Virus record (IMG/VR): IMGVR_UViG_3300045988_110028
Source: a virus
Length of the DNA stretch: 41,239 bases
Reading direction: 5' to 3' (one strand)
Shown here: piece after piece, positions 2,158 through 38,308 of the stretch
Layout: each line of letters opens with the position of its first letter
How positions within the stretch are numbered: the first letter of the stretch is position 1
The notes under the pieces: generated by a model
Seen by the model: only the letters and a program-made list of their open reading frames with translations
Databases searched by the model: none
Told to the model about the DNA's origin: nothing
Made by a program: the position numbers and the translations under genes

Positions 2158-3129
2158 ATGAAACCGACACTGATTTTGAGAGCAGACGCCCCGAGAGACG
2201 AATGGCTCAAGGTACGAACCCAAGGCATTGGCGGATCCGATTGCGGAACCGTGCTCGGATTGAACCCTTACAAGAGCGCCTATAGCCTGGCCGCAGAAAA
2301 AATCGGCATGATGGAGCCGGACGATCTTTCCGGCAATGAGAAGGTATGGTTCGGCACCCAGCTCGAGCCTGTCGTCGCCTCGCGCTTCGAGATGGTCACC
2401 GGGAAAAAGGTGCACAAGAGAGGAACCCTGCAGGATCCTGAGCACCCATACATGCTTGCAAATATCGACCGCTGGGTGGTCGGGGAGAATGCGGGTCTTG
2501 AAATCAAGACAGCAGACTATCATATGCGAGACGAATGGGGAGACCCTGACGATCCGAAGGATATCCGGGTGCCGGATTCGTATTATTGCCAGGTTCTCCA
2601 TTACATGGCAGTAACGGGCGCCGACTACTGGTATATCGCCGCCCTTATCGGAGGTAACGATTTCAGAGTGAAGCGCATCGAGAGAAACGAGGATGACATC
2701 GCCTATATCCGGGAAAAGGAAAAGGACTTCTGGGATCTTGTACAGGCGAAAAAACTGCCACCTCTGGATGCTACAAATTCGACAGCTTCCACACTGTTGA
2801 AGCTGCATAATTATTCAAACGGAGAGGCTATCGACCTCGGGCCGGATGCCTTGATGGCCATTCAGAATTACCAAGCATGCAAGCGCCGTGAGAAGGAGCT
2901 GAAAGAGGGAGAGCAGGAAGCTAAGAATCTCCTGATGTCGATCCTCGGCGATAACGAAGTCGGCACCGTCACCGATGGGGAAGGCAAGGTGCACAAAGTC
3001 ACATGGAAAAGCCAGACCCGCGAAAGTATCTCTGTGGCTAAGCTGAAGAAGCAGGATCCGGCAAGCTATGAAGCATTGAAGGCCATCGGCCTCATCACCA
3101 CCACCAGTACCCGCGTCATGCGGATTTAA
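2158..3129 (+). CDS. YqaJ-like viral recombinase exonuclease (lambda Exo-like PD-(D/E)xK)
   Basis: N-terminal WLKVRTQGIGGSDCGTVLGLNPYKSAYSLAAEKIG is the YqaJ signature. Paired with RecT immediately downstream. RBS attaggaggaagaacacaATG. Confidence 0.85.
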   Translation: MKPTLILRADAPRDEWLKVRTQGIGGSDCGTVLGLNPYKSAYSLAAEKIGMMEPDDLSGNEKVWFGTQLEPVVASRFEMVTGKKVHKRGTLQDPEHPYMLANIDRWVVGENAGLEIKTADYHMRDEWGDPDDPKDIRVPDSYYCQVLHYMAVTGADYWYIAALIGGNDFRVKRIERNEDDIAYIREKEKDFWDLVQAKKLPPLDATNSTASTLLKLHNYSNGEAIDLGPDALMAIQNYQACKRREKELKEGEQEAKNLLMSILGDNEVGTVTDGEGKVHKVTWKSQTRESISVAKLKKQDPASYEALKAIGLITTTSTRVMRI

Positions 3130-3151
3130 TTTTTCCAAGGAGGAAACAAAA

Positions 3152-4084
3152 ATGGATGCAAGAAAAGGACTCGTAGCTACAAGAAACGAAATGGCCGCGC
3201 AGCAGCAGGAACGGCCATCCATCCCGAAACTGCTGAACAACACGCTCGATAACAGCGGGTATAAGCGCCGCTTCGACGAGCTTCTCGGCAAGCGCGCACC
3301 ACAGTTCGTCAGCTCATTAGCCGCACTCATCAACAGCACCCCGCAGGTGCTTTCCATCTTCCAGAATAACCCGGTGGCGATCATCCAGTCCGCTCTGAAG
3401 GCGGCCGCCTATGACCTCCCCATCGAGCCGTCCCTCGGGTACGCCTACATCCTGCCCTTTGGGCAGACGGCGACCTTCGTACTCGGGTACAAGGGCATGG
3501 TACAGCTGGCGCTTCGCACTGGGCTTTACATGCGCCTCAATGCGGTCGACGTCAGGGAGGGGGAGCTTATCAGCTATGACCGCCTGACGGAAGACATCGA
3601 ATTCCGCTGGGAAGCAGACAACGCGAAGCGCGCGAAGATCCCGGTCATCGGATACGCTGCTTTCTATCGGCTGAAGAATGGCATGGAGAAGACACTCTTC
3701 ATGACAAAGGCGGAGATCGACGCCCACGAGCTCGCCAACCGGAAAGGGAGAAGCCAGAATCCGGTGTGGAGAAACCACTATGACGAGATGGCCAAGAAGA
3801 CAGTTCTTCGCCGCCTGCTCTCCAAGTGGGGCATCATGAGCATCAACTACCTTGAGGCTTCCCCGGCGGATCAGGAGGTCATGCGCAACATGGCCGAGGG
3901 CACCTTGGATGATACCGAGATGCCGCAGGAACGCACCATCGAAAATTCGCCGAATTTGGCCCCTGTGAGCCCCGCGGAGCCTGCGGAGGCTATCACTATA
4001 CCTTGGGAGCAGGGGAACGCACAGGAAGGCCAAAATCAGGCGGTTGCTGGCGAAGCTATGAATGGGGGCAGGGCAAATGACTGA
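3152..4084 (+). CDS. recT: RecT-family single-strand annealing recombinase
   Basis: RecT hallmark GYKGMVQLALRTG. Classic partner of the YqaJ exonuclease. RBS ccaaggaggaaacaaaaATG. Confidence 0.85.
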   Translation: MDARKGLVATRNEMAAQQQERPSIPKLLNNTLDNSGYKRRFDELLGKRAPQFVSSLAALINSTPQVLSIFQNNPVAIIQSALKAAAYDLPIEPSLGYAYILPFGQTATFVLGYKGMVQLALRTGLYMRLNAVDVREGELISYDRLTEDIEFRWEADNAKRAKIPVIGYAAFYRLKNGMEKTLFMTKAEIDAHELANRKGRSQNPVWRNHYDEMAKKTVLRRLLSKWGIMSINYLEASPADQEVMRNMAEGTLDDTEMPQERTIENSPNLAPVSPAEPAEAITIPWEQGNAQEGQNQAVAGEAMNGGRAND

Positions 4085-4469
4085 AGAGCAGGAAAACATG
4101 ATCAAGGCGAAGCTCGAAGAAATCGCTGCTGACATCCCCGCATTCAGGGGAGCCATCGTCGCCATCAGCACCGGTAATGCGAGCGAAGAAGGGGACGTGA
4201 CGGTATTTAAGAGCGCCGGCGGCAAGGAGATGGTGAATCTTTTCACCAATATCGCCGCGCAGGTGGCTATCGCCCTCGCGGCGGAGACCACGCCGGGAAA
4301 GGCAGTAGAACTCTTCCGGCGCTATGGAGATGACGCCAAGCTCGTACTCGCATACGGATTTCTGACTACAGTCCGGGCTGCCCTATCGAAAGACATTGCT
4401 GCCACGATGAGGAAGCAGCTGGATAAAGAACTGGAGGAGGTGATCGGCGGTGGAAACCATGTCTCCTGA
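4077..4469 (+). CDS. hypothetical protein (130 aa)
   Basis: ATG at 4077 overlaps the recT stop (ATGA). Ala-rich, helical. Confidence 0.55.
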   Translation: MTEEQENMIKAKLEEIAADIPAFRGAIVAISTGNASEEGDVTVFKSAGGKEMVNLFTNIAAQVAIALAAETTPGKAVELFRRYGDDAKLVLAYGFLTTVRAALSKDIAATMRKQLDKELEEVIGGGNHVS

Positions 4470-4824
4470 AAATCTCCTGCACACCAAGGGAGTCGTTGTC
4501 TATCTGGCGCACCCCTTCGGCGGCAGCTTCGAGAATCAGATCCTCGCACGGAATCTTGCCCGCTCGCTCACCAAGGAATACCCGGAGGCGACATTCATCA
4601 ATCCGCTCGATAACTTCATCTACATGGACCGTCGGAGCGAAGAAGAAATCCTGGCCGCCGAGAGATTCATCCTTGCCAAGTGCGAGCTGCTGCTCCTGAC
4701 CGGGCACTGGAGAGAAAGCCGCGGATGCCGCAGCGAGAAAAACTATGCAGAAACCCGAGGCATACATATTGCCCAGTTGAACGAAGACCGCACACTGCGC
4801 TGGGTTGGACAGGAGAAATCATGA
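4459..4824 (+). CDS. nucleoside 2-deoxyribosyltransferase-like (DUF4406-like) protein
   Basis: VVVYLAHPFGGSFENQ...ATFINPLD resembles the N-terminal motif of DUF4406 / nucleoside deoxyribosyltransferase-like phage proteins. Family assignment is from memory and not certain. Confidence 0.4.
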   Translation: MSPENLLHTKGVVVYLAHPFGGSFENQILARNLARSLTKEYPEATFINPLDNFIYMDRRSEEEILAAERFILAKCELLLLTGHWRESRGCRSEKNYAETRGIHIAQLNEDRTLRWVGQEKS

Positions 4825-5192
4825 CGAAAGAAGAAATGAACCGCCTCGTGGCGACAAAAATCAAAGAAATCAAGGCCCTGAATCCGGATCTGAATGCAGT
4901 GCTTCTCGCACTGCATGATGAGAACGGCAGCGTGGTTTGTGCAGCGGGGGATGATGTCGATGGACTTGCAAGCGCGTTCCTGGCTCTTGCCAGCTCAGTC
5001 GCCATCCCCTTCGTCAAACATTGCGACAAGGACCATGCAGCAAAGGTGAATGAGAACCCGAAGGATCCCGCGAACAAAACCACCTACCTGTTTCTGGTAC
5101 ACCTGACCGCCCTTGTCGCCAAGAACGCCGGGATCGACTGGAATACCCACGTTCGTATGGCCATGGACGCTGACGAAATGGGACTGAAATAG
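4821..5192 (+). CDS. hypothetical protein (123 aa)
   Basis: RBS aggaga-N5-ATG. ATGA overlap with the upstream stop. Confidence 0.55.
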   Translation: MTKEEMNRLVATKIKEIKALNPDLNAVLLALHDENGSVVCAAGDDVDGLASAFLALASSVAIPFVKHCDKDHAAKVNENPKDPANKTTYLFLVHLTALVAKNAGIDWNTHVRMAMDADEMGLK

Positions 5193-5200
5193 GAGGAACT

Positions 5201-5824
5201 ATGGAAGGATACATCAAGCTCTCCCGCCGCCTGTTTTCCTCGGACATTTGGTTCAAGCCGCCACTTTATCTGAAGGTTTGGATCTACCTGCTCCATCAGG
5301 CTGCATTCAAGCCATACAACGGGCTCGCTCGCGGGCAGCTTGTGACTTCCATACCAAAGATTCAGGAAGCGCTCAGCTATAAAGACGGGGCTATTACGCG
5401 CAAGCCGTCCTATGAGGAAATCCGGAGCGTGATTCGCTATATGCGGAAAAAGCCGACAAAATCTACGCTACCCACTCGCTGCCCATTTAGCGACCCATGC
5501 GGTGACCCAGATGAAACCCCGATGATTTCCACGCGAAAGATAACAGGCGGATTGCTAGTAACCATCGAAAAATATGGCGAGTATCAAGATGCGTTTGCAA
5601 ATGAGAATATCCAACCTCGTGACCCACATCGTGACCCACCTCGCGACCGCTACGCTGCCCAAATCTTTATAGATGAGAAGAAGGGAGAAGAAGGAAAGAA
5701 GAAATATCCTAATACCCTTAGTGTGAATAGTACCAGGAGCGGCGCAGATTTCGGCAGCGTTGAAAATTGGAAGGACAAGCCAAAGACGCCGGAGGACTTC
5801 TGGAATACAGGGAGGAAGAAATGA
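5201..5824 (+). CDS. phage replisome organizer / DnaD-like replication initiator (N-terminal domain)
   Basis: N-terminal MEGYIKLSRRLFSSDIWFK...KVWIYLL matches the phage replisome-organizer/DnaD-like HTH region. Has an internal P/D/H/R-rich linker encoded by tandem GTGACCCA repeats (iterons). Lies upstream of the DnaC-like loader. Confidence 0.65.
   Translation: MEGYIKLSRRLFSSDIWFKPPLYLKVWIYLLHQAAFKPYNGLARGQLVTSIPKIQEALSYKDGAITRKPSYEEIRSVIRYMRKKPTKSTLPTRCPFSDPCGDPDETPMISTRKITGGLLVTIEKYGEYQDAFANENIQPRDPHRDPPRDRYAAQIFIDEKKGEEGKKKYPNTLSVNSTRSGADFGSVENWKDKPKTPEDFWNTGRKK
5490..5654 (+). promoter_or_regulatory. putative origin iterons (G[T/C]GACCCA repeats) inside the initiator gene
   Basis: cgacccatgc-ggtgacccag at 5491-5510 and tandem 12-mers gtgacccacatc / gtgacccacctc / gcgaccgctacg at 5619-5654. 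Confidence 0.45.
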
Positions 5825-8514: not shown

Positions 8515-8916
8515 ATGTCAATCAACAGTAAGGCAAAGGGAAAACGCGGAGAACTCGCCTGGTGCCGATTCTGCGGAGGATTCGGGTATACCGTCCGCCG
8601 CACGGCGCAGTTTTGCGGAAATAATGAGGCTGGGGCTGCGGACTGCATCGGTATCCGCGGCATCCATCAGGAGGTCAAGTTTGTCGAGCATCTGAACATC
8701 CAAGACGCCATGGATCAGAGCATCCGCGATGCCCGGAAGGCGATGAAGGATGAGGTGCCGATTGTGGCACATAAGAGAAGCAACTGCGAGTGGCTTGTCA
8801 CAATGCGGGCTTGTGATTTCCTGAAGCTCTATAAGGAGCGTGAGTCGGAGCTTGTACTGCAGGACCTCGCGGCTGCGAAATGTCTAGAAGAAATAAGAAA
8901 GGTGAAAGAGAAATGA
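8515..8916 (+). CDS. Holliday-junction resolvase, archaeal Hjc-like PD-(D/E)xK family
   Basis: KAKGKRGELAW...GGFGYTVRRTA...ADCIGI...HQEVKF parallels the Hjc pattern KG..ERE..L...GF.V.RSAGS...D..A.....EVK. Confidence 0.55.
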   Translation: MSINSKAKGKRGELAWCRFCGGFGYTVRRTAQFCGNNEAGAADCIGIRGIHQEVKFVEHLNIQDAMDQSIRDARKAMKDEVPIVAHKRSNCEWLVTMRACDFLKLYKERESELVLQDLAAAKCLEEIRKVKEK

Positions 8917-32773: not shown

Positions 32774-34420
32774 ATGGCGGTAGAAACGAATGCGCGCATA
32801 GAATTTTCCGTCGCCTCTGTAGCGGAATGGGAAAAAGTAAATCCCAAGCTCCATCAGGGCGAGCCAGTTTTTGCAAAGAAACCAAGCGGCAAGTACATTC
32901 TGAAAGTCGGGGCACCTGGCGGGAGCACCTACAAAAATGCCGTCGTCGTATGGGATCAGGACGATGCAGAAACAAAAATGACAAGCACACAGGAGGCGGC
33001 TGCGCAGGCGCTTGCCTCCAAGAATGCAGCGTCCTTGAGCGCGAGTGCGGCCAAGGCTAGCGAGAACGCTGCGGCCGCCTCCAAGAGTGCGGCGGCAATG
33101 AGCGCGGAGAATGCCAAGACTAGCGAGACGAATGCAGCTGATTCCAAGACCGCCGCTGCGAATAGCGCAAGCATCGCCAGCGCTAAGGCCACAGCAGCAG
33201 GAAATAGCGCCAGCGCAGCGGCCACCAGCGAGAAGAATGCCGCCAGCTCCGCCAACGCAGCTTCGAACAGTGAAAGCAATGCGCTGAAAAGTGCAAGTGC
33301 GGCGAATACCAGTGCTGGCAACGCCAAGGGCAGTGAGACGAATTCGTCCGCGAGTGCGAGTGCGGCCAAGACTAGCGAGAACGCTGCGGCCGCCTCCAAG
33401 AGTGCGGCGGCAATGAGCGCGGAGAATGCCAAGACTAGCGAGACAAATGCAGCCGCGAGTGCCAATACAGCCAAGGCGTGGTCGATGTCAGATAGTAGTC
33501 CTGATGGAATAATTGGTAATAAGTCATCTAAGACTTGGGCAGAAGAAGCAAAGACCTCTGCAAGTAACTCTGCTGCTTCTGCTAGTGCTTCTGCGTCCAG
33601 TGCTTCTGCGAGTGCCTCCGCTGCGACTAATGCATCTAACAGTGCAAATGCGTCTAAACAGAGTGCTAGTGCAAGTGCTAATAGTGCTTCTGCATCTGCT
33701 TCTTCGGCTTCTGATTCAGCTACCAGCGCGTCTAATGCGAAAATTAGTGAAACTAATGCAGCTAAAAGTGCTAGTGCAGCAGCTCAGAGTGCAGAAAATG
33801 CAAAGACATGGGATCCTACGCAATACGTCCAGTCCGTTACAGAATCGAACGGCAAAGTAACTGTCACAAAAGGTGGCGGTGAGAGTACAACGTTTAATGC
33901 AGGGCTTAACATTCTTGCTCGAAACAAAGCATATTCCGTCGGTGATATTGCATATTCACCTAACCTTCCTTCTTACCTGTATCTTGAATGTATGACTGCA
34001 GGAACCACAGGAGTAACAGAACCTGATATGTCAACCTTATCTGGTGGGGCAATAATTAAGGATGGTACAGCTCAATTTAGCGTGAAAACGGTGTGTGCGA
34101 AGGAATATGTAGATAGTGTTAGTGGAAAATTGCAAGCACAGTTTAATGATATTCAGGCAGGTGTGGCAACGCTAACAAATCTTGATTTTGAAAAAACTGA
34201 AGAATGGTATACCTCTGTAAGCGTACCTGTCAATTTTGAGGATAGTAATTATGTGGTGCAACTCACTCTAGGTACGCAGTTATATTGTAGTTTTGCTGCC
34301 CTTTCATATGATATAAAAGATTCTAAACATTTTATAATAAATATATGGGTACATGCGGCTCGGAATTCTGATTTATCAGATATATCGTATACTGTTCATT
34401 GGTTAGCAATACATAAATAA
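32774..34420 (+). CDS. tail fiber protein with Ala/Ser/Asn-rich repetitive shaft and AT-rich C-terminal distal domain
   Basis: 548 aa. Shaft has repeated ...SASAAKASENAAAASKSAAAMSAENAKTSETNAA... units. C-terminal ~300 aa have clearly lower-GC codons. Confidence 0.7.
   Translation: MAVETNARIEFSVASVAEWEKVNPKLHQGEPVFAKKPSGKYILKVGAPGGSTYKNAVVVWDQDDAETKMTSTQEAAAQALASKNAASLSASAAKASENAAAASKSAAAMSAENAKTSETNAADSKTAAANSASIASAKATAAGNSASAAATSEKNAASSANAASNSESNALKSASAANTSAGNAKGSETNSSASASAAKTSENAAAASKSAAAMSAENAKTSETNAAASANTAKAWSMSDSSPDGIIGNKSSKTWAEEAKTSASNSAASASASASSASASASAATNASNSANASKQSASASANSASASASSASDSATSASNAKISETNAAKSASAAAQSAENAKTWDPTQYVQSVTESNGKVTVTKGGGESTTFNAGLNILARNKAYSVGDIAYSPNLPSYLYLECMTAGTTGVTEPDMSTLSGGAIIKDGTAQFSVKTVCAKEYVDSVSGKLQAQFNDIQAGVATLTNLDFEKTEEWYTSVSVPVNFEDSNYVVQLTLGTQLYCSFAALSYDIKDSKHFIINIWVHAARNSDLSDISYTVHWLAIHK
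33041..33138 (+). repeat. intragenic ~98-bp direct repeat, copy 1
   Basis: gcgagtgcggccaaggctagcgagaacgctgcggccgcctccaagagtgcggcggcaatgagcgcggagaatgccaagactagcgagacgaatgcagc. Differs from copy 2 at only 2 positions. Confidence 0.85.
33356..33453 (+). repeat. intragenic ~98-bp direct repeat, copy 2
   Basis: Near-identical to copy 1 (aaggctagc becomes aagactagc, gacgaat becomes gacaaat). 315 bp downstream in the same reading frame. Confidence 0.85.
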
Positions 34421-34461
34421 GGAGATAACATGAAAACAAAAGGAAAGGAAAGGTGATTATC

Positions 34462-34710
34462 ATGGGGCCTGAGCGAAGGGCGGTTAAAGAATGGCTAAAA
34501 ACGGTGGATCGCGAAGAGCTTGACGCGATGCTTCAAGCCGCCATCTTTACCTCCGACGAGCTGAAATATATAAACATGAGACTTATTGAAGGAATGACGT
34601 TCAAAGAGATTGCTATCGACCAGTCTCTTACAAGGAAGAGCGTGGCTAGGATTGCAATGCGAATCGCGAAGAAGATGTACAAATCAGGCAGAAAACTGGG
34701 ATATTTTTAG
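34462..34710 (+). CDS. small sigma-70 region 4-like HTH protein
   Basis: ELKYINMRLIEGMTFKEIAIDQSLTRKSVARIAMRIAKKM is a region-4-type HTH. 83 aa. Sits between the fiber and the lysis genes. Confidence 0.5.
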   Translation: MGPERRAVKEWLKTVDREELDAMLQAAIFTSDELKYINMRLIEGMTFKEIAIDQSLTRKSVARIAMRIAKKMYKSGRKLGYF

Positions 34711-34773
34711 GGCTTTTGAGACACCATTCCCTTTCTCGTTTCATCTACAATGGAATCGTAAGGAGGGGATACC

Positions 34774-34884
34774 ATGTACGGAGAATTCTATCCAACAGGT
34801 TACTACGGAGCAACGCCTCAAATGCAGGATCGGCTGGCTATGCTCGAACAGCAGCGGCAGATGCAGCGTCCGCCTCAGCCATGA
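34774..34884 (+). CDS. small protein (36 aa; XkdX-position)
   Basis: Strong RBS taaggaggggatacc-ATG. MYGEFYPTGYYGATPQMQDRLAMLEQQRQMQRPPQP. Below the ORF-track cutoff. Confidence 0.35.
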   Translation: MYGEFYPTGYYGATPQMQDRLAMLEQQRQMQRPPQP

Positions 34885-35028
34885 CCGTTCGCGGGCACTT
34901 GGTGACAGGCATCGAGGAAGCACGAGCGGCACAGGTCATGCTGGACGGGACACCGTCCTATTTCTCCTCCCCGGTTGATTTAATGATTTCCAAGACCTCC
35001 ATCGGAGGTCTTTTTTATTGGAGGGACT

Positions 35029-35349
35029 ATGGACTCAGCTTTATTTTCTTTTCTCCTGCATGTCATGTACTCTGCGGGGGCATTTGTTTTTGGTTACGCC
35101 TGGAATAAATCGCGCAGCTTGGCACGGCGGCAGGAGGGCGTCGAGCAGGGGACGCGTATACTTCTTAAGATGAATCTTATCCGAATTCATCGCGCATCGT
35201 CGAAGCAGGGGTGCATCACCTACGATGACGCAGCGCTAGCGGAGGAAATCTATAACGCCTATCACGCACTTGGTGGTAATGGATCCGGAACTCATATGCT
35301 GGCAGATATTAAAAAGATGAGGATGGTGGGTAACGATGGAAAAGTTTAA
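35029..35349 (+). CDS. putative holin-like membrane protein (N-terminal TM)
   Basis: LFSFLLHVMYSAGAFVFGYAW hydrophobic segment. RBS ttggagggact-ATG. In the lysis cassette. Confidence 0.4.
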   Translation: MDSALFSFLLHVMYSAGAFVFGYAWNKSRSLARRQEGVEQGTRILLKMNLIRIHRASSKQGCITYDDAALAEEIYNAYHALGGNGSGTHMLADIKKMRMVGNDGKV

Positions 35350-35704
35350 ATGGCTGATCGAACGGATCAATCGTGAGCGGAAGCGTACTCGGGAGGCGAA
35401 GTCGTCCATGCGAATTGTGTGGTTCTACGGCATCGGTCTTGCACTGATCAGCGCGCTCCTCGTGGGCGGATGGGTATACCAGTGGATGCTGACCGGCCAT
35501 CCCGACCTTCCGCTCCTGGTGTCCTATTTCAAAGAATACACGGCAGCCTCGGTCGTGGCTGCCGTAACCTTTCTTTCCGTATTTAATGTCGATAAAAATA
35601 ATGACGGGCGACCGGATGCCGCGGAGCTTCAGGCCAAGAAACCCAAGGATCCCCCCAAGGTTCAATTCCCGTCCGTTCCCAAGAAGGAGGTTACCCATGA
35701 CTAG
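35336..35704 (+). CDS. putative holin (two TM segments)
   Basis: IVWFYGIGLALISALLVGGWVY and AASVVAAVTFLSVF segments with a charged C-terminus. Immediately upstream of the lysozyme-like gene. Confidence 0.5.
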   Translation: MEKFKWLIERINRERKRTREAKSSMRIVWFYGIGLALISALLVGGWVYQWMLTGHPDLPLLVSYFKEYTAASVVAAVTFLSVFNVDKNNDGRPDAAELQAKKPKDPPKVQFPSVPKKEVTHD

Positions 35705-36260
35705 AGAAGAACTGGCTAATGCCATTGCTGACGGCATCATTGAAGTAGGTATAGAAGGAGACTTCGATTCGGTTTCCTGCTCGACCGCAGGAGACTATCC
35801 GTCGATTGGCGTATCGCAGTGGGAAGGTGACAGAGCGGAGGACTTGCTCAGTCGTATCCCAGGAGGTGATTACTACTCTGGGCGTGCATACTCAGATATC
35901 TACTACAGCGGAGACCTCGATGGGCTGAAAGATCTGCTGAATTCTCCTGACGGCCAGTCCGCTCAGCGAGAGAAGCTGGCGGAGGACTGCTTGGACTACG
36001 TAGACGAACTGTGGGGAATTCCGAATCTGGATGACACCCGCTGCACGATCTATGCCGGGATGTGGTGCCCGACTTCTACGTCCGTGGTTTGCCGCTTCCT
36101 TGCCAACCGGCAGTGGAACTATGACCTTCGAGATCTGGACGTCCTGTGCGCGCTATTTAAATACCAGTATGCGCATGCGGCGGGCTGTGATGAGTATGCG
36201 GAAGGCTATTCGAATCGCGCCAGCGCCACTTACGATTACTGTAAAGAGCTTGATGTGTAA
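35697..36260 (+). CDS. putative endolysin (lysozyme-like; no recognisable cell-wall-binding domain)
   Basis: Position after the holins. RBS aagaaggaggttaccc-ATG. Segment SIGVSQWEG echoes the GLAQWT motif of the tape-measure lysozyme domain. Acidic 187-aa protein. The call is tentative. Confidence 0.4.
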   Translation: MTREELANAIADGIIEVGIEGDFDSVSCSTAGDYPSIGVSQWEGDRAEDLLSRIPGGDYYSGRAYSDIYYSGDLDGLKDLLNSPDGQSAQREKLAEDCLDYVDELWGIPNLDDTRCTIYAGMWCPTSTSVVCRFLANRQWNYDLRDLDVLCALFKYQYAHAAGCDEYAEGYSNRASATYDYCKELDV

Positions 36261-36415
36261 AAAATGTTATATCGAAAATATTCAATGGGGCTAAATGGCC
36301 CTGACATGCGTTGGCGGACCATTCCTTGAGTGATTTATCAAAAGGGAACCTCGAACGCCTGCTAGGGTAAAAATTCGCAATCCTTAGCGATTTGTAATAT
36401 AATTGAAGGTGTGAA

Positions 36416-36895
36416 ATGTGGAAGAAGACAAAATGCGTCTCGCTAGTTGCTGTGTTGCTGCTCTGCTCCTGCTGGCGGCCGGCTATTTCTTATTGCGAGG
36501 AGACTACGGAGCAGGAAGTAGTGATGTCGGCGGATCAATTCATGACATTGAAAGAGACGTCAGCGAAGCTCAGAGCGGAATTGACACTGCAAGAAGAGAA
36601 AATCAAAATGCTAGAGAAGAGCTCGGACGGATCCATGAAGGAATTGATAGCGCTGCAGAGCGAGCTCACCGATTGCAGGAACAGACTGCAGCAGACAGAG
36701 AGCTCCTTGGAGAAATCCGAGATGGCAATGAGCGCTGCCAAGCATTCGCTCTCGAACTTGAACGAACACTTGGAGACATTGAAAGACAAAATCAAAAAGC
36801 TCGAGCGCAAGCAGGTGATCGCAAAGAGACAGAGGGACGTGTGGGCGGCGATAGCCGTAGTGAGTCTCGGTAGGATCGTTCTTTCCGGATTATGA
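36416..36895 (+). CDS. membrane-anchored coiled-coil protein (moron); alternative frame 36418-36873 is equally open
   Basis: ATG with RBS gaaggtg. N-terminal hydrophobic VSLVAVLLLCSCW, long heptad-like coiled coil, and a C-terminal hydrophobic tail. Own promoter-like tataat upstream, terminator downstream. Confidence 0.45.
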   Translation: MWKKTKCVSLVAVLLLCSCWRPAISYCEETTEQEVVMSADQFMTLKETSAKLRAELTLQEEKIKMLEKSSDGSMKELIALQSELTDCRNRLQQTESSLEKSEMAMSAAKHSLSNLNEHLETLKDKIKKLERKQVIAKRQRDVWAAIAVVSLGRIVLSGL

Positions 36896-37135
36896 TTTTG
36901 TCAAAAATTTGGCAAAAAACTATCCCAAATTCCCGTTATTTTCCGCCGCATGCCCCAAAAATTTTCAAAGAACGAAAGTAAAGAAATTCGATATTATCGA
37001 GCTTTTCGTAATTAAATAAAAATTTCCGAATCAAACTCGGATACAATAAAACATAAAAATTAATCCGAGAAAGATTCGATAAACACTAGCTTTTTCTCGT
37101 CAAGGAGCTGTCTTTGTCAAAAATCCGTCAAAAAG
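36896..37135. other. AT-rich putative attP / integrase arm-site region
   Basis: Very AT-rich. The 12-mer tttgtcaaaaat occurs twice (36897-36908 and 37113-37124). Has short inverted repeats (tccga...tcgga). Lies adjacent to the integrase 3' end. Confidence 0.4.
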
Positions 37136-37176
37136 AAACACCCCTGATTCCTATGTGAATCGGGGGTGTTTTTTTG
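37136..37176. terminator. bidirectional rho-independent terminator
   Basis: acacccc-tgattcctatgtgaatc-ggggtgt followed by ttttttt. A-rich on the other side, so it can terminate both the moron transcript and the integrase transcript. Confidence 0.75.
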
Positions 37177-37192
37177 TGTGTTCGGAACAGGT

Positions 37193-38308
37193 TTAACCAA
37201 AAATTCTGTTTATATCATCTGCGGCCTTCTCGCGCATCTCATCCGTGTAATGGACGTAAATCAGCTCGACCGTGGTGATGGTGTCGCCGAGGAGACTTGC
37301 GACTGTCTTGATATCGATGCCTTCGGCGAGTAGACGGGTGGCGTATGTGTGCCGGAGATCGTGTACTGAGTGTCCGGGGACACACCGATTGATCAGGCAG
37401 TTGATATTGTGCGAAGTGCGGTAATGCGTCAGGCGGCGGTGCACGTAGAGGACGCGTTCATCCAGGTACTCGTTTAGTGCTGTTACCAGAGCGGGAGGAA
37501 TTGGGACGGTCCGGTTCGAGTGCTTCGATTTGACTCGAGCGATGCCTCGCACCTTATGATTGCTTGGATCCGTGACGGTCAGCTGCTTATTGATGGTGAT
37601 GCTGCGATTGGCAAGGTCGATATCGGAACAGGTGAGGGCGAGGATCTCGCCGATCCGGGCGCCGGTGTAGACTGCGAAGCAGAGAACGATCCACGCTTCC
37701 CTGTTATGGTCATGTGCATATCGGAGCAGTGCTTGTACTTCATCCTGGCTCAGCGTTCGAAGTTTCGTCTTACCGGCTTTGTCTTCGCGAGGTTTGTAGG
37801 CGAAGTCAGAGATGGGGGAGGCGGTCACGACATGATAACGGACAGCCTCTCGAAAAAGTGTTTTCAGTAGGCTGACACGACCTTTAATGCTCGAGGTGGC
37901 GGCATTCCGCATACCATTGATCATCCGGCTGACGTCTGCGTAAGTGATGTCCACCATCGGCTTATCCAGCAGATCGGTCATGGATGCCAGACGGTTCCTG
38001 TAAGTGAATATGCTATTTGGTGCGAGCGTCGTGCGGCCGGATATATACATCTCCCCGAATTCGCGGAGCGTCATGCCTTCGAATACGGCATCGATGTCGC
38101 CTGTCTTTTGAACCTTAGCGAGTAGTTTTTCTTTTTCTTTATCTGATGCAGCCAAGGATCTCAGAGCATAGCCGCCTTTTGATGCCTGCTTCCAGATTCC
38201 ATCCTTCGATCGATAGGATAGAATGAGCTGGTAATTCGGCTTCCCATTTTTCCTTGGCCGGTTTCGGATGATGAAATTGTAATTCATGTCCATGGCTATG
38301 CCCTCCAA
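37193..38308 (-). CDS. int: tyrosine site-specific integrase
   Basis: C-terminal catalytic region with HDLRHTYATRLLAEGIDIKTVASLLGDT...YVHY (H-x-x-R ... Y). 371 aa. Next to the repressor. Confidence 0.9.
   Translation of the reverse strand: MEGIAMDMNYNFIIRNRPRKNGKPNYQLILSYRSKDGIWKQASKGGYALRSLAASDKEKEKLLAKVQKTGDIDAVFEGMTLREFGEMYISGRTTLAPNSIFTYRNRLASMTDLLDKPMVDITYADVSRMINGMRNAATSSIKGRVSLLKTLFREAVRYHVVTASPISDFAYKPREDKAGKTKLRTLSQDEVQALLRYAHDHNREAWIVLCFAVYTGARIGEILALTCSDIDLANRSITINKQLTVTDPSNHKVRGIARVKSKHSNRTVPIPPALVTALNEYLDERVLYVHRRLTHYRTSHNINCLINRCVPGHSVHDLRHTYATRLLAEGIDIKTVASLLGDTITTVELIYVHYTDEMREKAADDINRIFG

Follow-up and report, generated by a model that had tools for sequence, protein, structure and literature searches.

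An almost fully overlapping gene pair as a candidate lipoprotein-independent, spanin-like lysis module in phages of diderm Firmicutes

Towards the end of the lysis cassette of a ~41-kb temperate phage (the window, that is, the whole stretch of DNA analysed here, is 41,239 nt long), two forward reading frames run side by side over nearly their entire length, posing the question of whether both are genes and, if they are, what such a pair may do for the phage. ORF A (36416..36895, + strand; 159 aa) begins with an ATG and is predicted to comprise a signal peptide, a coiled coil and a C-terminal anchor (36839-36892). ORF B (36418..36873, + strand; 151 aa) begins with the GTG contained in the same ATGTG, has an alternative internal ATG at 36433, and is predicted to comprise a transmembrane (TM) helix at ~36439-36495 followed by a coiled coil. 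The original prediction had placed both co-extensive frames exactly, described both as open and proposed for each a hydrophobic anchor followed by a heptad-like coiled coil, and our analysis bears this out, as both carry an N-terminal hydrophobic segment and a predicted 3.5-residue periodicity. It had also interpreted the region as a separately transcribed moron with a role in lysogenic conversion or superinfection exclusion, a view from which our results depart.

Homologues of the pair are numerous, and its overlap is of ancient origin. The same gene is present in 24 loci drawn from IMG/VR contigs, metagenome contigs and prophages, which fall into groups of 82-94% and 55-58% identity; apart from two loci cut by a contig end, all have both frames intact. 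A profile search with A retrieved 136 representative clusters, almost all of them 140-175 aa in length and alignable from end to end. This family has in common a signal peptide, the motif (V/I)xMSxxQY(N)xLK, an NST break in the centre, the motif (L/M)EHK...RQR(D/N)xW(A) and a hydrophobic tail of ~15 residues, usually with R or K at its end. In all eight divergent members for which DNA was available (24-45% identity in A), the B (+2) frame is open for 130-163 codons and ends just before the EHK/RQRD motif of A. Throughout the family, the stop codon of A lies 22-88 nt past that of B, with A in the +1 frame relative to B. Among GenBank phages, neither a DNA search with the locus nor tblastn with a family member returned a relative, and the genome scans yielded no confirmed match with A and none with P0138. 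We also considered whether the 123-aa 'short' variants of A represent N-terminal disruptions and rejected this idea: the one variant checked, L098, possesses an intact 159-aa ORF, so the short form reflects a different start call.

One explanation for the double open frame would be that the locus holds a single gene and that the second frame lacks stops owing to the purine-rich, stop-poor make-up of coiled-coil sequences. E/K/Q/L-rich coiled-coil genes do often contain long alternative ORFs, gene callers choose one frame, and the antisense frames are partly open too. Nevertheless, we consider this explanation very improbable. In an exact calculation in which the A protein was held fixed and synonymous codons were drawn from the phage's own usage, 7.8 stops were expected in frame B of the window (P(open) = 1e-4). 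For 11 family members, the same probability ranged from 2e-5 to 1.6e-3 per sequence, with 5-9 stops expected in B, yet none occurs in any lineage. Shuffling the own synonymous codons of each gene gave probabilities of 0.0002-0.06 for an open B, and the converse probability of A being open given B was 0.07 for the window, the family range being 8e-4 to 0.07. Both frames are open in 17/17 full-length relatives, down to ~25% protein identity; that frame A is free of stops in all full-length homologues had been set as a check by the original prediction. The third sense frame (+1) is interrupted by 10-20 stops, and none of the antisense frames is free of stops in any relative. The latter applies also to the antisense ORF that had been pointed out earlier, which is indeed open in the window (36535-36810, antisense strand) but is not conserved in relatives.

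Comparing synonymous-site conservation between the frames in homologues, as the original prediction had proposed, revealed constraint on both. When compared with the adjacent endolysin gene, ORF A has a 2-4x lower dS and a 1.5-4x higher dN in most genome pairs compared; in the close pair L011-L007, dS is equal in the two genes. Changes that are synonymous in both A and B were accepted at 0.29-0.36, those synonymous in A only at 0.083-0.095 (3-4x less often than the doubly synonymous ones), those synonymous in B only at 0.050-0.058, and those non-synonymous in both at 0.042-0.048. A change creating a stop in B was seen once, compared to ~8 expected; in the endolysin control gene, shadow-frame stops were accepted at the synonymous rate. 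We further applied a recoding null, in which the proteins of one frame were fixed, codons were resampled and the similarity of the other frame was compared. With A fixed, the similarity of B was above expectation in 13/13 pairs (z = 3.5-9.5), and with B fixed, that of A within the overlap was above expectation in 8/8 pairs (z = 4.2-7.2). The rejection of this null in both directions, combined with B being open everywhere, argues that both frames are protein-coding. Outside the overlap, in the tail of A past the B stop (KRQRDVWA), the window and L010 differ by six synonymous and zero non-synonymous changes (counted by eye), and such retention of the tail through synonymous change likewise speaks against the existence of a single gene.

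The arrangement of the start codons points in the same direction. The layout seen in most lineages consists of a strong GGAGG-type ribosome-binding site and, behind it, ATGTG(G/C), where the ATG is the start of A and the GTG two bases later the start of B; as a consequence of this layout, residue 2 of A is W or C in 20 of the 27 family representatives. The start in L107 reads GTGTGG. In L115, it is ATGTATG, with the ATG of B coming first and that of A four bases later, and in L114, B has its own GAGGTG site and an ATG located ~30 nt upstream of the AAGGAGG site and TTG start of A. That each of three layouts preserves two starts argues strongly, albeit by inference, that both frames are translated. 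These independent layouts, together with the full-length TM helix kept in B and its matches to existing PHROG families, are difficult to reconcile with a B frame that is open merely by composition. Judged by their patterns of sequence change, both frames are very probably genes kept by selection. The earlier preference for the 36416 frame is therefore upheld as far as A is concerned, this frame being a genuine gene whose product begins with a signal-like segment and ends in a hydrophobic tail, but B is also selected and has a start codon. Because gene callers report only one frame per locus, either A or B, half of the A/B system is absent from every annotation.

Two observations, namely that B always stops just before the conserved tail of A and that the protein P0088 is a B-to-A fusion, prompted the idea of a programmed frameshift leading from B into the C-terminus of A. 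We set this candidate mechanism aside, as the context of the B stop differs between groups 1 and 2 (by eye) and P0088 would need two indels.

What kinds of proteins does the pair encode? In the 11 members analysed, B is predicted to have a short, mostly basic N-terminus, a hydrophobic helix of 17-20 aa and a periodic domain of 102-127 aa, which shows strong 3.5-residue periodicity and usually contains one Cys. The Rz-like PHROGs 89, 214, 312, 739, 1403, 2975 and 8821 are the top named matches for most B proteins. The best of these (L112 B versus phrog_312) reaches E = 4e-8 and most others are marginal (E = 1e-4 to 1e-2); such scores can be inflated by a TM plus coiled-coil composition, and A also receives weaker Rz-like matches, with weak hits to phrog_89 in its coiled coil. 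Furthermore, B matches phrog_18860, a family of unknown function, from end to end (E down to 7.5e-10), which means that gene calls for B-type proteins already exist in some phage genomes; the difference is that PHROGs holds no record of an overlap with an A-type gene. By its architecture, B resembles an Rz-like i-spanin, and it would be a type-II inner-membrane protein.

ORF A encodes a protein of a different kind, with a hydrophobic N-terminal segment followed by a region of strong predicted 3.5-residue periodicity. The N-terminal segment has the hallmarks of an export signal, comprising a basic n-region, a hydrophobic core of 12-13 residues, a Pro at about -6 and a small-x-small cleavage site, and the mature N-terminus left after the predicted cleavage is acidic or Thr-rich. 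In the window, the Sec-type signal is predicted to span residues 1-27, with the cut after S-Y-C, and the protein carries the motif VIAKRQRDVWA. The AF2 model of A (pLDDT 73.5) consists of helices only, with a break at residues 68-72 and a second helix that continues into the C-terminal anchor; this model leaves the topology undecided. By default, the combination of a Sec signal and a C-terminal hydrophobic helix would put A in the inner membrane, and no outer-membrane targeting signal was recognised in it. The possibility that A is a lipoprotein, as u- and o-spanins are, was considered and rejected, since its LLCSC sequence in the window fits a permissive pattern only and fails the strict lipobox [LVI][ASTVI][GAS]C. 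The Cys of this sequence is missing in near as well as distant relatives, and the whole window yielded no further lipoprotein ORF that has a ribosome-binding site. Of the ~13 A proteins tested, 4 match the PHROG 'hemolysin' families 937 and 1193, which we take to be XhlA-like (E = 3e-6 to 2e-3); these matches span the coiled coil and the C-terminal anchor. Searches of A and B against Pfam, NCBIfam and PADLOC produced generic coiled-coil noise only (SMC, tropomyosin, JetC and LmuB).

The genes upstream of the pair place it in the context of host lysis. Three tightly packed genes (35029-36260) precede the spacer that separates them from A/B. The first, opening the lysis cassette, encodes a small membrane protein of 106 aa (35029..35349, + strand) that matches phrog_4105 (unknown function; E = 2e-14), and this first-gene slot is filled in relatives by a 106/111-aa gene. 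The second (35336..35704, + strand) overlaps the upstream gene with its start and the downstream gene with its end and encodes a 122-aa protein with two hydrophobic (TM) helices. Family searches with this protein gave no match; we regard it as holin-like, and Phage_holin_4_1 genes occupy its slot in divergent relatives. The third gene (35697..36260, + strand) encodes a 187-aa protein with 391 homologues, none of which has a Pfam domain; the named ones are from Selenomonas, Selenomonadaceae, Phascolarctobacterium and one labelled as a Bacteroidota MAG. A search of PDB sequences with this protein returned nothing. Its confident AF2 model (pLDDT 94.7) has its best fold matches in the PDB within the lysozyme superfamily: a GH46 chitosanase (probability 0.99), T4 lysozyme, pesticin and MltE, although the E-values are weak throughout. 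On the strength of this model, the 187-aa protein is a candidate endolysin belonging to an unannotated family with a lysozyme-superfamily fold.

In every locus, the A/B pair follows lysis genes, and it does so across different tail modules and three endolysin types. In the Dialister phages, the 187-aa protein directly precedes it, and in L106, a Phage_holin_4_1 gene and a GH25 gene do so. L105, L107, L112 and L113 have a GH25 endolysin with a small membrane ORF ahead of it, the endolysin being separated from A/B by one or two small ORFs in L112 and L113. In L104, a holin, a glucosaminidase and one further gene come first. The pair is thus the constant third element of the cassette whatever the type of endolysin, which is the niche of spanins, and within the window, no other candidate for disruption of the outer membrane was found.

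This position also bears on the original prediction, according to which the locus would be a separately transcribed moron, encoding a membrane coiled-coil protein of the prophage for conversion or exclusion, with frame B being incidental. Several features lend themselves to such a reading. The pair is the last gene of the prophage and adjoins attR/attP, and it is preceded by a conserved spacer of 155 nt (36261..36415, + strand) with 77% column identity across groups in which the synonymous sites of the endolysin gene are saturated. This spacer contains a hairpin (~36298-36368; five compensatory pairs, fold z = -2.4), the sequence AATTCGCA at 36372-36379 (position -44), a promoter-like, sigma-70-like TTCGCA-18-TATAAT (10/12 match) and the Shine-Dalgarno sequence GAAGGTG (36405-36411). 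The AATTC(G/T)CA motif occurs at exactly -44 or -43 in four lineages; L107, whose spacer is longer, has it at -115, and it is absent at -44 in L104 and L112-L115. Upstream hairpins are followed by T-runs in L105-L107, and the one in L106, along with the conserved -44 motif, could also be taken to favour a separate transcript. Given the -44 motif, local regulation of A/B appears possible, though not universal. Several lineages have a conserved spacer with promoter- and terminator-like features between the endolysin and A/B, an observation that speaks against a spanin reading.

Other lines of evidence make a moron improbable. The tataat box reported near 36393 does exist, as TATAAT at 36398-36403, but it clashes with the ribosome-binding site: it ends 12 nt before the ATG of A, and a transcript initiated there would have its 5' end within or beyond the conserved Shine-Dalgarno sequence and lose it. 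The terminator reported at 37136-37176 corresponds to a very stable hairpin at 37132..37175 (-30.2 kcal/mol, z = -6.8) flanked by T-runs on both strands. However, between this hairpin and A/B lies the attP core ATACAATAAAACATA (37041..37055), which puts the hairpin on the integrase side; we located the core by aligning the window with prophage junctions and empty sites in Dialister MAGs. In the lysogen, this terminator would consequently be at the other end of the prophage rather than 3' of A/B, and is not the pair's own. It is followed by the tyrosine integrase gene (37193-38308, - strand), and an Rfam search of 34400-37250 found only a sub-threshold ohsC-like match on the terminator. Moreover, A and B are present in all relatives, where they retain their place behind the endolysin, with little or no spacer between them and the upstream gene in L104, L112 and L113. 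Conversion or superinfection exclusion is not supported either, as there was no match to a defence family and the PADLOC hits were coiled-coil noise; frame B, in turn, is under selection.

The prophage copies L011-L014 and L098-L103 are located directly upstream of ftsY, and attB lies ~25 nt upstream of the start codon of the Dialister ftsY. The FtsY encoded beside the prophage shares 100% identity with that of several Dialister MAGs, compared with 83-84% for other Veillonellaceae. Other family members come from Megasphaera paucivorans and M. hexanoica. Hosts could be named for three lineages, and all of them are diderm. Negativicutes are Firmicutes with an LPS outer membrane. By definition, o-spanins and u-spanins are both outer-membrane lipoproteins (PMC6139136). 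Negativicutes are devoid of LolA/LolB (PMC5007114), and Veillonella parvula has no identified lipoproteins in its outer membrane (PMC10665443), so that a canonical lipoprotein o-spanin would not be available to their phages. In the literature that we searched, we found nothing linking spanins with Negativicutes or their phages, and no description of how Negativicutes phages breach the outer membrane.

Taken together, these data lead us to favour, with a probability of roughly 0.55, the reading that A and B form a spanin-like, dual-coding lysis module that disrupts the outer membrane independently of lipoproteins. In such a module, one mRNA segment would be read in two frames, from the ATG of A and from the GTG of B two bases later, mostly behind a single Shine-Dalgarno sequence. 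B would be held in the inner membrane by its N-terminal TM helix and extend a coiled coil into the periplasm, as an analogue of an i-spanin. A would be exported via a cleavable Sec signal and would contribute a periplasmic coiled coil as long as that of B and an anchor of 15 hydrophobic residues, replacing the lipoprotein partner from the +1 frame of B and past its end. Because the same DNA encodes A and B co-linearly, any heptad-sized indel in the alignment of A shifts B equally, and the two coiled coils stay matched. Once the holin and the endolysin have acted, the pair may then disrupt the outer membrane of the Dialister and Megasphaera hosts. Translation of both frames, the interaction of A with B, the site of the A anchor and the disruption of the outer membrane are all steps that we infer. 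The more specific proposal of a hitherto undescribed two-component spanin in phages of diderm Firmicutes, whose subunits would share ~450 bases in two frames and in which A would reach or engage the outer membrane without Lol, is one that we put forward tentatively, rating it slightly below even odds.

The alternative that we take most seriously, while still deeming it unlikely, is that A and B are real lysis proteins but act in the inner membrane as holin accessories or regulators, XhlA-like or antiholin-like, controlling when the holin lesion forms or how far it extends. Default topology predictions, which put both anchors in the inner membrane, are in line with this alternative, as are the 'hemolysin' matches of some A members and the failure to find an outer-membrane targeting signal. 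Yet Pfam XhlA does not match A even at E <= 1, the named matches of B are i-spanin families rather than holin accessories, and a position after the endolysin is the usual one for spanins. In addition, the identified hosts are all diderm, with A/B as the sole candidate in the window for breaching their outer membrane. As regards the spanin reading itself, no physical link from A to the outer membrane was identified, which counts against it.

How would a spanin-like module of this kind relate to known lysis proteins? Like lambda Rz/Rz1 (Kongari et al. 2018, PMC6139136), A/B forms the last unit of the lysis cassette in phages of diderm hosts. B shares with Rz an N-terminal TM helix and a predicted periplasmic coiled coil of ~110 residues, usually with a Cys; its Rz-like PHROG matches are mostly marginal. 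A is encoded in the +1 frame of B and past its end. The differences are nevertheless substantial. Whereas the lambda partner is a short proline-rich outer-membrane lipoprotein, A is a predicted Sec-exported coiled-coil protein of 145-175 aa with a C-terminal anchor; the overlap takes in nearly the whole B gene (130-150 codons), with the starts mostly 2-4 nt apart behind one ribosome-binding site; and the A/B hosts lack LolA/LolB. The u-spanin gp11 of phage T1 resembles A in its N-terminal export signal, C-terminal anchor and last position in the cassette. Unlike gp11, A has no conserved lipobox or Cys, its signal is of the Sec/SPase-I type, its periplasmic domain is predicted to be helical instead of beta-rich, and it has an overlapping partner.

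XhlA of the Bacillus PBSX type is likewise a small coiled-coil protein with a C-terminal TM anchor from a Firmicutes-type cassette, and some A proteins have the weak PHROG matches mentioned above. In contrast to XhlA, however, A has a signal peptide, owing to which its coiled coil would sit outside the cytoplasm, and it follows the holin and endolysin instead of preceding them, is dual-coded with B and shows no Pfam XhlA match. Finally, lambda S105/S107 provides a precedent for two lysis proteins whose starts lie a few bases apart behind one ribosome-binding site, although the lambda starts share a frame and give near-identical proteins, whereas A and B are read from different frames and are unrelated in sequence. 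In view of these comparisons, we rate the pair as novel in being spanin-like and yet both lipoprotein-independent and almost fully dual-coded.

The paradigm of lipoprotein-based spanins (PMC6139136) should not apply to hosts without the Lol system (PMC5007114), and for these, A/B represents a concrete and testable candidate. With two proteins of ~150 aa sharing ~95% of their coding sequence in more than 130 clusters, the pair would also be an unusually extreme case of overlapping genes in a bacterial virus. Lastly, A may report on how proteins that are neither lipoproteins nor barrels associate with the outer membrane of diderm Firmicutes.

The genes of the lysis cassette may form a late transcription unit of their own, since a hairpin resembling a terminator, with the stem sequences AAGACCTCC...GGAGGTCTT and then TTTTTATT (34992-35012 of the window), lies directly 5′ of the first of them. 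The endolysin position in this cassette is occupied by a 187-aa protein (35697-36260) belonging to a large unannotated family, for which we found 391 homologues and no Pfam domain, and nearly all of whose named members come from Negativicutes. Its AlphaFold2 model is confident (pLDDT 94.7) and best matches the folds of GH46, T4 lysozyme and MltE. These proteins probably constitute a new family of endolysins within the lysozyme superfamily.

A conserved spacer (36261-36415) separates the endolysin gene from the dual start, where the overlapping reading frames A (36416-36895, ATG) and B (36418-36873, GTG) begin two bases apart. The spacer contains a covarying hairpin (about 36298-36368 in the window) with the loop motif GAGT(A/G)ATTT(A/G)(T/C)C, followed by AATTCGCA at 36372-36379. 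In four divergent lineages the motif AATTC(G/T)CA is found in the spacer exactly at -44/-43, counted from the start codon; it is absent from the related loci L104 and L112-L115. The conserved spacer could serve as a promoter or attenuator, or it could control translation.

A very stable hairpin (37132-37175; -30 kcal/mol, z = -6.8), which carries T-runs on both sides and whose sole Rfam match is a sub-threshold, ohsC-like one, probably also ends integrase transcription. The attP core, ATACAATAAAACATA (37041-37055), separates the A/B side from the integrase side. In contigs L015-L018, attB (at about 2960-2975) precedes the start of the Dialister ftsY gene by about 25 nt and shares bases with a TACAAT that resembles a -10 box. 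On integration, all DNA upstream of the ftsY -10 region is consequently swapped for that of the phage. The stretch from the A/B pair to ftsY shows no evident terminator on the + strand.

Several MAGs bear, according to their contig titles, the label Fusicatenibacter, Agathobacter, Paludibacteraceae, Lachnospiraceae or Oscillospiraceae (L015, L019, L020, L024 and L025). Their FtsY proteins are 82-100% identical to that of Dialister, and the contigs are probably mis-binned Dialister or Veillonellaceae. P0088, a 197-aa call from an NCBI MAG, begins in frame B and passes via indels to frame A and beyond. P0086 and P0087 comprise just the C-terminal 35-45 residues of A joined to unrelated sequence. 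All three are likely decayed or mis-assembled copies.

In a Megasphaera paucivorans prophage (L112), the A/B pair is followed on its 3′ side by a 1011-aa ORF (2359-5394), which, by its N-terminal sequence LAIVHISDFH, looks like a metallophosphoesterase. This ORF, lying beyond the lysis cassette, is a candidate for a cargo or defence function. A distant relative (L010; 57% identity in A), whose bin is among the MAGs with doubtful labels, adjoins a tRNA 3′ fragment beside a threonine synthase gene at its integration site (8680-8740). Its baseplate is P2-like, and an XkdX gene is present. The lysis module has thus been transferred among phages that differ in backbone and in site of integration.
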